From NCBI GenBank assembly GCA_051747585.1, contig JBNJGH010000005.1, forward strand, positions 1-64,000: 64,000 nucleotides of DNA, read 5' to 3'. The DNA comes from Candidatus Rifleibacteriota bacterium. Lineage in GTDB: Bacteria > Muiribacteriota > Ozemobacteria > Ozemobacterales > Ozemobacteraceae. How positions within the stretch are numbered: the first letter of the stretch is position 1; each line of letters begins with the position of its first letter. Positions 17,240 to 57,409 of the stretch are shown here, piece after piece. A model generated the notes under the pieces. The model saw only the letters and a program-made list of their open reading frames with translations, was not told where the DNA came from and searched no databases. The translations under genes and the position numbers were made by a program.

Positions 17240-17597
17240 TTATCAAATTCGTTTTCATCAATTGAATTCAATTAAACCACTGAGACCACCGAGGACACCG
17301 AGACGATTTTTTAATCTTTTTCAGCCATGGTTCCCAGCAACAGCAAGCCCTCAGAAAAGCACCAGTGTTTTTCTGAGGGCTCTGTGGTTATTTTCTTTGT
17401 GGCTTGGTGTGGGGTATATTACTGTCGGGAATCGATATCGTGATCGAAGAAAAAACACGACGACGATTACGACTACGAGCCCGAGCACGATTTAGATTGC
17501 TTCGTCGTTTCACTCCTCGCAATGACAGTTTGCAGGCTTTGTGTGAGGAATATTCTTTTTCTGAAACAAATTGATAATCGTTGGCCGGGTATTGCTT
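17240..17597 (+). repeat. Composite intergenic repeat element (copy A) with nested palindromes
   Basis: 17272-17327 matches 57229-57284 at 50/56. Hairpin 17341-17380 resembles 57341-57380. Right end aaattgataatcgttgg matches the terminus of the 21385 element at 16/17. Confidence 0.75.
17494..17527 (-). repeat. GTCATTGCGAG...GAAGCAATCT repeat, copy 2
   Basis: Reverse complement reads tgtcattgcgaggagtgaaacgacgaagcaatct. Confidence 0.8.
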
Positions 17598-19892: not shown

Positions 19893-21296
19893 CTATTTTT
19901 TTAACTGGGGTCTGCGTTTTCTGACTCTGACCCTTACTGCCTGTTCAACTACTTTATCTTCAAGGCCGGTTATTCCTTTTGCTTCAAAAATCACATCAAG
20001 ACCGGGCTCGAGAGCTGCAATAGTTTCTTCGGTAAGAGCAGAAAAAGGAAAAAATATTTCCCGACCATCATGGGATCGAATTATGCCCACTTTTCTCTCT
20101 TCATCGAAACTTTCTATTTTGCCGGGCAAAGCATCAGAAACGCTGTGTTCATGTAACTTTTTGACCTGAACGGCGACAGGGCTGTTTTTGTCTTTAACAA
20201 TTCCAAACTCAACCGGGTCGCCCTTGGTTAAATTTTCTTCTATCTCAGGTGTTAAAGCAGAAAAATGAAGCAGAACTTCAGGAAAGTCATCGCAGGAAAG
20301 CACTCCCATACCGGTTTCACGATTATACCATTTCACCCAGCCTTCAACAAACGCATCTGGAGTGGGGTCATAAATAATTTCTTCCACTGTTCTACCAATA
20401 TCTTTTCTGATTGAATCGATCTGGCCTATCAACTGTTTAACTTCAGGCTGTTCCGGGTTAATGGCAAGACAATCTTTAAGAGTTTCTACAGCCATTGCCA
20501 GCAGCCGACGTTTGAAATAAACCAGCCCCAGAAACAAAAGTGCCGGCGCATCTTTGGGCTTTATTCTCAAAGATTCAAGCAGATTGGCCTCGGCTTCTTC
20601 AAGCATATCAAGCTCATAAAGTATACTACCGATATCACGACGAAACGCGGCATTATAAGGGAACCTCTTTATTAACTGACTATAAACGTCCAGTGCTTCA
20701 TCAAACCACTTCATTTTATTATAAATCTCAGCCAGCTGCTGCATAGCATCGAGATTTTTCGGGTCTGCTGCAAGAATGTTTTTAAATTCTTCGGCAGCCT
20801 CGAGAAAATGAGTGTCGGCATTGTCGTCATCATGCTTAAGCCGGTATATCTCGCCAATGTTTTTATGAAAATGCGCCTTTCGCTGACCTGTTTCCAATCC
20901 CTGTCTGTAGTTCTTCAGGGCATTTTCTATATCGCCACAAAGGCGGTAAGCCAGGCCAATGGTTTCATAATAATCTGGCTCTCCCGAGTCTTTATTTATG
21001 CACCATTTCAACTTTTTTATTGCTTCTGTGTATTTTTCTTCCACCAGATCATCAACAGCTTCATCGAACTTTTCTTTAATTTCTTCAAGAAATTCCGCCA
21101 GCTGCTCATCGTATTCTTCCCGTCTTTCGTCATCAGTAAGCAATTCAAAAGCATTTTTTAATTGCTTTAATTTGGGAATATTTGACAAAGGAGAATCAGT
21201 TGAAAAAAGCTGGGTATAATTTTTTTTGTAAGCCGCTGCTATTTCTTCGAGGCTTGCAAAATTAGGCACCCCGAATAGTTGATAAAGATTGCGCAT
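19893..21296 (-). CDS. J-domain-like + TPR + two cold-shock (OB) domains protein
   Basis: J-like NLYQLFGV..AS.EEI..AY...AFELLTD..RREEY without HPD; TPRs; GWVKWYN..GMG..VLLHFSAL and GKIESFD..G.I..IFFPFSAL. Start set at ATG 21296, downstream of the predicted promoter. Confidence 0.8.
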   Translation of the reverse strand: MRNLYQLFGVPNFASLEEIAAAYKKNYTQLFSTDSPLSNIPKLKQLKNAFELLTDDERREEYDEQLAEFLEEIKEKFDEAVDDLVEEKYTEAIKKLKWCINKDSGEPDYYETIGLAYRLCGDIENALKNYRQGLETGQRKAHFHKNIGEIYRLKHDDDNADTHFLEAAEEFKNILAADPKNLDAMQQLAEIYNKMKWFDEALDVYSQLIKRFPYNAAFRRDIGSILYELDMLEEAEANLLESLRIKPKDAPALLFLGLVYFKRRLLAMAVETLKDCLAINPEQPEVKQLIGQIDSIRKDIGRTVEEIIYDPTPDAFVEGWVKWYNRETGMGVLSCDDFPEVLLHFSALTPEIEENLTKGDPVEFGIVKDKNSPVAVQVKKLHEHSVSDALPGKIESFDEERKVGIIRSHDGREIFFPFSALTEETIAALEPGLDVIFEAKGITGLEDKVVEQAVRVRVRKRRPQLKK

Positions 21297-21339
21297 TTGT
21301 TCTGGATTAATCCCAATCAGCCTGAATTTGTACAGTGCC

Positions 21340-21368
21340 ATTGTACTTTATTATCAGCTTTTACGCAA
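21340..21368 (-). promoter_or_regulatory. sigma70-type promoter of the J/TPR/CSD gene
   Basis: TTGCGT-N17-TACAAT on the minus strand. Confidence 0.65.
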
Positions 21369-21384
21369 CACCCGGCATAATAAT

Positions 21385-21739
21385 CCCAACGATTATCCAT
21401 TTAGTATTATTACGAGTTTTGGCTAGTTATTCTCCATTAATCTGTTAAAAAATCTTTAAACTGTTTGCGCCGTTCGAAGTGTTTAATTGTGTAAGTGTCG
21501 GAGTATGCCATTTATATCAAAAACATAAACCGCAAAAACCGATTGTTTTTGCAGGATGCAATAAACACGACTATGTTCCACAGGAAGTGGAATCATAGGC
21601 GCGCATCGGTGTTGCGAGTGTTGTTTTTGCTAAATAAATGAGCATACGTAGATGTGAAACAATTAAACACTTTGATAAGGCAAAAAAAAGCGGAATTGTT
21701 CTTTAAGCCTGAATTAGAGCTAAATGGATAATCACTGGG
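21385..21739 (-). other. ~355-nt nested fold-back element (candidate structured ncRNA or MITE-like element)
   Basis: Nested inverted repeats 21385-21404/21720-21739, 21477-21490/21659-21672 (perfect 14 bp), 21503-21515/21634-21647, and further inner stems to 21565-21604. Confidence 0.75.
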
Positions 21740-21797
21740 CTCTGCAAACAATTTGTTGAAATAGGAACCTGTTATAGAGTAAATTGAGCTGCTGCAT

Positions 21798-22901
21798 ATG
21801 AAAATCGCGATAAAAACCATTGACAGATATATTTTAAAAGAGATGCTCGAACCATTTTTATTCGGCATGTCTTTCTTTGTTGCAATCTGGCTTATTGACC
21901 TGATGATGCAGCTGATCAATCTTATTTTTTCCAAAGGGGTACCTCTGTCGGTCGTTTCAATGTTTTTTATTTACAGCCTCCCCCCAACGCTGGTCATAAG
22001 CTTTCCAATGGCTTTATTGTTGTCAAATCTGGTAGCATTTGGCAGGCTTTCTTCAGATTCGGAAATCACCGCAATGAAAGCCGGGGGGTATAGCTTTACC
22101 AGAATTGTAGCACCAGCTATTCTGGCCGGAATTTTTATTACTTCGCTGACATTTTTGTTTAACGAAAAACTGGTGCCGATAGCTAACCAGAAATTCACCA
22201 ATTTATTCAGACGGGAGGTAACCTTGAAAAGGCCTCTGCCGAAGGTTGCCGAGAACAGATTTTTTAATGCAGGTCCGGGGCGCAACTTTTTTGTAAGAAG
22301 ATTTGACGAAAAAACCAGAGACATGTACGGAGTTGTAATGTACGAGGGGCAATCAAAAGGCTTTCCACGAGTTATAGAAGCAGAAAAGGCCCGGATAGAA
22401 GGCGGAATTTGTTATTTCTGGAAAGGACGAATATCTGACATTCATCGAAGTGGTGCAGATAATAACTACACATATTTTAACGAGATGGAATACCCTATTG
22501 ACACCCATTACGTAAATCCCGACCACGTACCTGAACAAAAAAACGCGAGAACCATGGGTGTTTGGAAGCTTTACAATTTTATTCAGGAATCAGAAAAAAA
22601 AGGCATATCTGAAAAGATTATTGTAGAGCACTGGATAGAGCTCTGGTCGAAAACCGCGATACCTTTCGCAAGTCTTATTTTTGTTTTAATCGGCGCTCCA
22701 TTAGGCTCGCAAACCACCAGATCCGGAACTGGAATCGGCATAGGAATGTCGGTGGTAATAATATTCTTCTATTATGTCCTTTTCGCTGCCGGCAAAGCTT
22801 TTGCCAAAGGCGCTGTTTTACCACCCTTCTGGGGGGTCTGGTTCCCCAACTTCTTTATCGGCATAATAGGACTCTGGCTGATATTCAAATCTAAAGCCTG
22901 A
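21798..22901 (+). CDS. LptF/LptG (YjgP/YjgQ) family LPS export permease
   Basis: IDRYILKE, LP..L..SFP, RLSSDSEITAMKAGGYS, W.PN. Confidence 0.9.
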   Translation: MKIAIKTIDRYILKEMLEPFLFGMSFFVAIWLIDLMMQLINLIFSKGVPLSVVSMFFIYSLPPTLVISFPMALLLSNLVAFGRLSSDSEITAMKAGGYSFTRIVAPAILAGIFITSLTFLFNEKLVPIANQKFTNLFRREVTLKRPLPKVAENRFFNAGPGRNFFVRRFDEKTRDMYGVVMYEGQSKGFPRVIEAEKARIEGGICYFWKGRISDIHRSGADNNYTYFNEMEYPIDTHYVNPDHVPEQKNARTMGVWKLYNFIQESEKKGISEKIIVEHWIELWSKTAIPFASLIFVLIGAPLGSQTTRSGTGIGIGMSVVIIFFYYVLFAAGKAFAKGAVLPPFWGVWFPNFFIGIIGLWLIFKSKA

Positions 22902-57152: not shown

Positions 57153-57409
57153 CAGCAATTCTCGGTCAATTATTATTTGCTATTTACAAAACAGTTCTGG
57201 TTTTATTTCTTTCTGTCAAATATAGAATTTAAACCACTGAGGCCACCGAGGGCGCAGAGTTGATTTTTTAATCTTTTTCAGCCAGGATTTTGTCCTGTGG
57301 ACAAATAGCCGGCGGTTTCATTGCCCGGCTTTTCCTTCTTCAGCAAGCCTTCAGAAAAACACGAGTGCTTTTCTGAAACGAGTTGATAGTCTCTCACCGA
57401 GAATTACTA
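57153..57409 (+). mobile_element. MITE-like composite element (copy B)
   Basis: Imperfect TIRs CAGCAATTCTCGGTCA / TCACCGAGAATTACTA (13/16), flanked by direct repeat CTGCTCGGG (57144-57152, 57410-57418). Internal blocks are shared with 17272-17380. Confidence 0.6.

Follow-up and report, generated by a model that had tools for sequence, protein, structure and literature searches.

A probable ISNCY-like MITE with a lineage-specific TwoAYGGAY-like cassette between two divergent promoters in Candidatus Rifleibacteriota

Here, we characterized a long fold-back sequence situated between two divergent genes in a 64,000-nt stretch of a Candidatus Rifleibacteriota genome (the whole stretch is referred to as the window; Table 1). 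It is likely that this sequence is a MITE of an ISNCY-like family which carries a lineage-specific TwoAYGGAY-like cassette and which is a passenger at its present site. The locus itself is ordinary, being one MITE more in a genome with about 100 of them. The core of the element is a lineage-specific TwoAYGGAY-like motif that is missed by Rfam and comprises about nine diverged subtypes, with very strong covariation and fixed internal loops. It was also caught inside an intact insertion sequence (IS), which offers a concrete route of spread, with the cassette entering an IS end and then forming part of a MITE. The candidate parent IS, the intact cassette-bearing IS, the assignment of the cassette to the plus strand and a family-wide covarying alignment are new here; variants similar to the cassette may already be present in the supplement of bioRxiv 10.64898/2026.09.22.753630.

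Table 1. Positions of the element, its parts and the flanking features in the window.
Feature	Position	Strand	Remarks
Whole MITE, ISNCY-like ends around the two-GGA-hairpin cassette	21387..21737 (351 nt)	.	Shared ends; gap empty in congeners
Terminal inverted repeat, 5' side of closing helix, family pattern YAGYAATTMTCCATTT	21387..21404	+	Also ends the intact G006 IS
Subterminal arm, similar to the G006 IS right end and to the ends of ~200-nt MITE subfamily members	21405..21450	+	Inner TIR-like repeat from 21424
TwoAYGGAY-like cassette of ~200 nt, conserved, with two GGA hairpins above a long basal stem	21473..21672	+	
5' arm of perfect 14-bp basal stem	21477..21490	+	Partner 21659-21672
CGGAG half of conserved 3x3 GGA/GNA internal loop	21499..21503	+	Partner CGTAG 21647-21651; conserved bulged A 21641
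Hairpin 1 loop CAGGATG	21552..21558	+	Matches CsrB repeat CAGGA(U/A/C)G
Hairpin 2 loop CAGGAAG	21581..21587	+	Matches CsrB repeat
Arm like the left end of the G006 IS, finishing in terminal inverted repeat 21720-21737	21680..21737	-	0/1000 shuffles beyond TIR
DnaJ-TPR-tandem cold-shock-domain gene	19893..21341 (ORF limits)	-	True start likely Met16 at 21296
Likely promoter of leftward gene, TTGCGT-17-TACAAT	21340..21368	-	Motif-based; kept in congeners; faces away from element
Likely promoter of lptF, TTGAAA-18-TAAATT	21756..21785	+	Motif-based; kept in congeners; faces away from element
LptF/LptG-family LPS export permease gene	21798..22901	+	

The first-pass annotation, made from the letters alone, described the non-coding gap as folding on itself into a single rod, and this was borne out by comparison with shuffled controls on both strands. 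The region 21380-21745 folded at -119.7 kcal/mol (z -8.18) on the plus strand and at -113.1 kcal/mol (z -9.60) on the minus strand, and 0/100 shuffles were as good in either case. A base-by-base check found the helices where they had been placed, including 18 Watson-Crick pairs plus two A.C among the 20 positions of the closing helix (21385-21404/21720-21739), 14/14 pairs in the 14-bp helix, 6 and 7 pairs flanking the bulged A at 21641 in the helix 21503-21515/21634-21647, and complete pairing of caaaaaca/tgtttttg (21518-25/21622-29, 8/8), cgcaa/ttgcg (21531-35/21612-16, 5/5) and accgat/atcggt (21538-43/21605-10, 6/6). The apical hairpin 21565-21604, whose bulge defeats a gapless check, and the small hairpin were present in the predicted folds. 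The rod as a whole probably represents TIR pairing and the cassette's own fold added together. ORFs lying wholly inside the element, considered with a type I toxin in mind, are 22-48 aa long, and no coding pattern was seen in the cassette alignment.

Several options had been proposed for this rod, and that of a member of a mobile hairpin family turned out to be right, as the closing helix corresponds to the terminal inverted repeat (TIR) of a MITE family. Numerous sites in the genome of the window match the element ends, and we identified there 96 TIR-paired elements shorter than 700 nt, mainly belonging to a ~200-nt and a ~370-nt subfamily together with mosaics. A 9-bp direct repeat was exact in 26 of these elements and agreed in at least 8/9 bases in 41, compared with an expected mean of 0.55 and a maximum of 4 duplications in 1000 shuffled pairings. 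Many copies with target duplications, the finding that the annotation had named as speaking for a plain MITE, are therefore a property of the shell (41/96). At the window copy, no target-site duplication was recognisable. A second copy may be represented by two contig ends, whose flanks would match in 8/10 bases if both ends belong together. The complete shell-plus-cassette form was assembled only once in this genome, the other copies being fragments or contig ends. We observed no contig junction in which the element is skipped, and two loose-end flanks had no match in this assembly. The TIR-like repeat inside the element at 21424 may mark a nested insertion, as one public contig starts there; on the other hand, the right end of the G006 IS (see below) contains a comparable subterminal segment.

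Compared with prokaryotic MITEs as described in a review (PMC10969869), the element shares a non-coding length below 500 bp (351 nt), short TIRs, an intergenic site, a family with direct repeats, a stable fold-back and a related autonomous IS, and it is likewise AT-rich (35% GC vs 41% for the genome). It differs from the MITEs outlined there in that its interior is a separately spread, covarying cassette common to other shells, and in that the duplication of the window copy was lost or never present; direct repeats of MITEs wane with age according to the same review. These MITE families have additional copies or mosaics in the window, located at 57153-57409, which has a perfect 9-bp duplication, at about 1530-1814 and at 17272-17581.

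The element occupies most of a 456-nt gap between the DnaJ-TPR gene and lptF. To compare this gap, we fetched 30 loci with the upstream protein, one of which is the window itself; 11 relatives had both flanking genes on the locus. The orthologous gap was 69-178 nt in 8/11 relatives, and the remaining three contained a ~1.2-kb insert (two) or an unrelated hairpin repeat (one). Thus, the orthologous site is empty in congeners, although the compared species differ and the exact insertion point lies below resolution. A DNA search of 50 other family genomes with the whole element matched only 2, both at other sites. The earlier statement that the element lies between divergent promoters agrees with what was found, as both flanking promoter-like motifs are conserved and face outward; congener gaps contain TTGC(G/A)(T/C)-17-TACAAT leftward and TTGAAA-17/18-TAAATT rightward. 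The element is upstream of both -35 boxes at a distance of 18 nt on each side, and therefore neither promoter would transcribe it. Met16 is the likely start of the leftward gene, as the ATG located further upstream lies partly within the conserved -10 box. The product of this gene, with DnaJ, TPR and two cold-shock domains, has an unusual make-up that is conserved family-wide. In one congener (L012; G003:C31, at a contig end upstream of the DnaJ-TPR gene), a related MITE end of the CAGCAATTCTCGGT type is present in the same small gap, which suggests an independent insertion at the same site.

The main reading of the first-pass annotation was a host-encoded ncRNA of ~350 nt transcribed from the minus strand, or a long 6S-like RNA. 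The strong fold, the closing stem and the central bubble would suit such an RNA, and the four minus-strand G.U pairs on which the strand had been based do exist (21389/21735, 21390/21734, 21565/21604 and 21567/21602). However, the whole element has 9 G.U pairs in the plus fold and 10 in the minus fold, and therefore the wobbles do not choose the strand; the plus strand is favoured in 17/17 homologous cores (see below). Moreover, the ends are transposon TIRs, and a host ncRNA gene is unlikely given that the site is empty in congeners. At the gathering threshold, Rfam returned only one tRNA in the whole window, an E-value scan gave only sub-threshold matches, and no class, including 6S (RF00013), was matched above threshold at the element. 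RNase P and tmRNA were rejected as candidates, both being located elsewhere in the genome. Taken together, it is very improbable that this reading is correct. A single-copy 6S-like RNA was found elsewhere (G000:C8:42362-42563; L009:1501-1702, +), forming a rod with a central bubble (34.6 bits vs a cut-off of 46.4) and sharing 76-84% identity with sequences in 5/5 relatives; it is likely the 6S RNA of this family.

A search of 87 genomes of the phylum with the TIR pattern led to an intact 1,773-bp IS in the genome of a relative, G006 (G006:C55:48330-50102). It has TIRs identical to those of the window element, a perfect 9-bp duplication and an ORF for a DDE_Tnp_1/IS4-like transposase, so that the MITE shares its TIRs with an autonomous IS. 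Elements with related ends were also observed in G024 and G022. Elements of 1.5-1.9 kb were found whose TIRs start with CAG and which have 9-bp duplications and one DDE ORF. Four distant plasmid-borne relatives of the G006 IS all have CAGCAATT ends; perfect 9-bp duplications were observed in two of the four, and an 'ISNCY family transposase' is annotated in two (relatives annotated as ISNCY having 31-33% identity). These features resemble those of the ISMae2 subgroup of ISNCY, i.e., CAG ends, 9-bp repeats and a size of 1.4-2.4 kb. In contrast to ISNCY-group DDE ISs, the element in the window has no coding content, and its own assembly (93.6% complete, 330 contigs) yielded no close transposase, the best match having 26% identity. 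This assembly also contains a two-ORF element (L084; G000:C307:1-2865) with a distant (26%) ISNCY-like transposase, which lacks the MITE ends.

Similarity to the G006 IS extends beyond the TIRs. The left arm of the window element resembles the right end of the IS (3/1000 shuffles) and its right arm resembles the left end (0/1000), whereas the crossed arm-to-end controls were not significant (199 and 188 of 1000). These matches fit an internal deletion of a cassette-bearing IS. The element ends most likely come from an ISNCY-type DDE IS, and the middle is most likely a separately spread 200-nt two-GGA-hairpin cassette. The element may have originated by internal deletion of an IS already bearing this cassette, and a related transposase acting in trans would then have placed the MITE between two outward-facing promoters, where it is probably tolerated as a passenger. 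With regard to other parents, IS1595 and IS256/Mutator were rejected, such transposases being absent from this genome, and so was IS1380 as a general parent: the cassette is present only at the C47 locus and absent from the 13 other IS1380 loci, several of which have short upstream DNA.

The cassette is much more widespread than the complete element. Eight further sites in this genome contain pieces of it, and diverged whole copies are located at C47 and C51. A covariance model (R1) was built from 11 copies and 28 candidates were scored per genome, so that the resulting counts are lower bounds. R1 matches were identified in at least 15 of 50 family genomes, with up to at least 16 copies per genome, often many and in different shells. 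None was found in 36 other genomes of the phylum among the 28 candidates scored in each, and the confinement of R1 copies to this family distinguishes them from TwoAYGGAY. Among public genome contigs, 5 of the 119 loci in the matches listed carried the core and the rest had chance-level scores; a named public record of Candidatus Ozemobacter carries the core. Metagenome pattern searches gave 0 loci in the first round and 3 in the second, 2 of them with full cassettes, and the cassette was absent from 3 viral loci.

In the intact G006 IS, the cassette (81.1 bits) lies within the left end, antisense to the transposase. The cassette copies of G006 have only a ~220-nt unit in common, and their flanks are unrelated. 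The cassette was present in one of 28 distinct loci searched around the G006 IS clade and its ends and in none of four distant ISNCY loci; therefore, it is not a standard part of the IS. It was also found upstream of the IS1380 gene at one of 14 IS1380 loci, several of them with short upstream DNA. Neither the ISNCY link (1/28) nor the IS1380 link (1/14) is thus a general one. At the IS1380 locus (G000:C47:3317-5075), the transposase gene is intact and a two-GGA cassette lies just upstream, and C51:2336-2841 is a deleted derivative with 509 bp of this IS1380-cassette end. Back-to-back divergent doublets of two cassette subtypes, about 40-165 nt apart, were observed at L306, at L307 and in G005 (C179 and C135); they resemble those reported for TwoAYGGAY in Pseudomonas (bioRxiv 10.64898/2026.09.22.753630).

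To analyze the cassette structure, a MAFFT alignment was made of 17 copies, picked from 28 distinct loci to limit near-duplicates (61% mean identity). For 30 core pairs, 94.3% of cells were paired (33-42% in slid controls), and 24/30 pairs change on both sides; the structure had been obtained from this alignment itself, the misaligned second hairpin was excluded, and the copies represent roughly nine related subtypes, so that these counts are not independent. Stem covariation in palindromic repeats could also come from arm-to-arm copying. In a closer variant in public contigs, four pairs were kept by double changes and three were broken or shifted, and a partner change was seen for a fifth pair. 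The earlier claim of a selected structure thus holds for the inner 200 nt as a covarying structure, and not beyond it. Its minus-sense part failed: the GGA (plus) strand folds better in 17/17 homologues and carries the conserved purine loops. Purines make up 456/636 of internal-loop positions on the GGA strand vs 193/670 on the other strand, and the consensus energy is -56.4 vs -49.3.

Nearly fixed unpaired features include the two GGA hairpin loops, the 3x3 GGA/GNA internal loop and the bulged As. In copies held out of the model, the two GGA hairpin loops were present in 20/23, after a G024 copy was dropped whose second counted loop was not the hairpin loop. That the loops stay fixed while the stems drift freely suggests that they are recognised by a protein. 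The loops would be recognised single-stranded, most likely by CsrA on RNA, and we infer that this recognition would have been selected in the cassette's own history and not for this locus.

The cassette is built like TwoAYGGAY and the reverse complement of Bacillaceae-1, both proposed CsrA binders, but its scores are below both Rfam thresholds and its loop sequences depart from TwoAYGGAY. TwoAYGGAY (RF01731; PMC2864571, PMC4333381, bioRxiv 10.64898/2026.09.22.753630) is described as two hairpins on a basal stem that is elongated in some lineages, with variable copy number and divergent doublets (bioRxiv 10.64898/2026.09.22.753630). The cassette likewise has two GGA-loop hairpins in sequence, which share one long basal stem, and a variable multi-copy intergenic distribution with divergent doublets. 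Tandem GA has been described and CsrA binding proposed for TwoAYGGAY, and CsrA binding also for reverse-complement Bacillaceae-1 (PMC4333381; also PMC2864571, Weinberg 2010); here, tandem G.A is represented in predicted folds by the GGA/GNA 3x3 loop in the window copy and most homologues and by GA/GA loops in several homologues. However, the window loops are CAGGAUG and CAGGAAG and not AYGGAY; an exact AUGGAU loop was found in some homologues (G011, G015 and G024), in loop 2 only. RF01731 had no match in this genome, and the best homologue scored 29.9 vs a cut-off of 43. Bacillaceae-1 (RF01690, reverse complement), in which proposed CsrA sites have been described (PMC4333381), matches the minus strand of the two-hairpin tip with 27.6 bits here and 34.4 in a G062 homologue, both under the cut-off of 35. 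The match extends over no more than 67 of about 200 nt, and the motif belongs to a different phylum.

Both loops of the window copy match the CsrB repeat consensus CAGGA(U/A/C)G (PMC7652899), a csrA gene is present in a flgL-fliW-csrA cluster of this genome, and, as mentioned above, the paired GGA loops recur in held-out copies and CsrA binding has been proposed for the similar motifs. This raises the idea that the cassette, transcribed on the plus strand, is a CsrA sponge spread by IS/MITE vehicles, whose copy number would tune CsrA/FliW control of flagellin. CsrB/RsmZ sponge sRNAs indeed share CAGGA(U/A)G in hairpin loops and a csrA gene in the host. They differ in that the cassette has only two loops and is multi-copy and mobile, in that neither a promoter nor a terminator of a dedicated sRNA gene was seen, and in that CsrA of this host belongs to the FliW-linked flagellar type. 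Upstream of the core, we found no plus-strand promoter, and the two host promoters point away from the element. The presence of csrA in 46/50 family genomes includes all 15 cassette carriers and is uninformative in this respect; as only 15 of the 50 have the cassette, the host does without it. Besides, the GGA of loop 1 is lost in all G006 copies seen (ACGA instead), and the orientation of downstream genes is mixed (16 on the same strand vs 9 opposite, n=25). We therefore consider a sponge function unlikely.

A single-stranded DNA role appears slightly less doubtful, though still unlikely. The cassette could be recognised as single-stranded DNA, e.g., by a HUH/RAYT-like or other mobilising enzyme, GGA and tandem GA serving as a handle with no RNA role. 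It is a self-contained unit in unrelated shells and flanks, the GGA strand is the more stable one with DNA parameters too (11/11 cores), and the divergent doublets are as in TwoAYGGAY. On the other hand, no mobilising gene was identified near cassette copies, where neighbours were mapped as ORFs only, the IS1380 link is local, and the loops match an RNA-binding-protein consensus exactly.

A more specific version of the sponge is about as doubtful as the sponge itself. The core might be an RNA cassette with a mobility of its own that is carried along in the upstream ends of unrelated ISs (ISNCY in G006, IS1380 here), points outward from the transposase in both and titrates CsrA. If true, the core would act as a selfish Csr sponge of a lineage with FliW-type CsrA, tying transposon copy number to motility control, and a mobile-sponge cassette would explain the mobile-repeat behaviour of TwoAYGGAY-like motifs, whose link between mobility and regulation is called unresolved in bioRxiv 10.64898/2026.09.22.753630. 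The natural loop variants among copies provide material for a CsrA binding test. For the window element, a passenger MITE with a lineage-specific cassette remains the preferred explanation.

Related IS left ends were also observed in G018 (L087), G009 (L093) and G006 (L064), each with a different hairpin repeat upstream of the transposase. This suggests that the region upstream of the transposase collects mobile hairpins and so seeds different MITE subfamilies.
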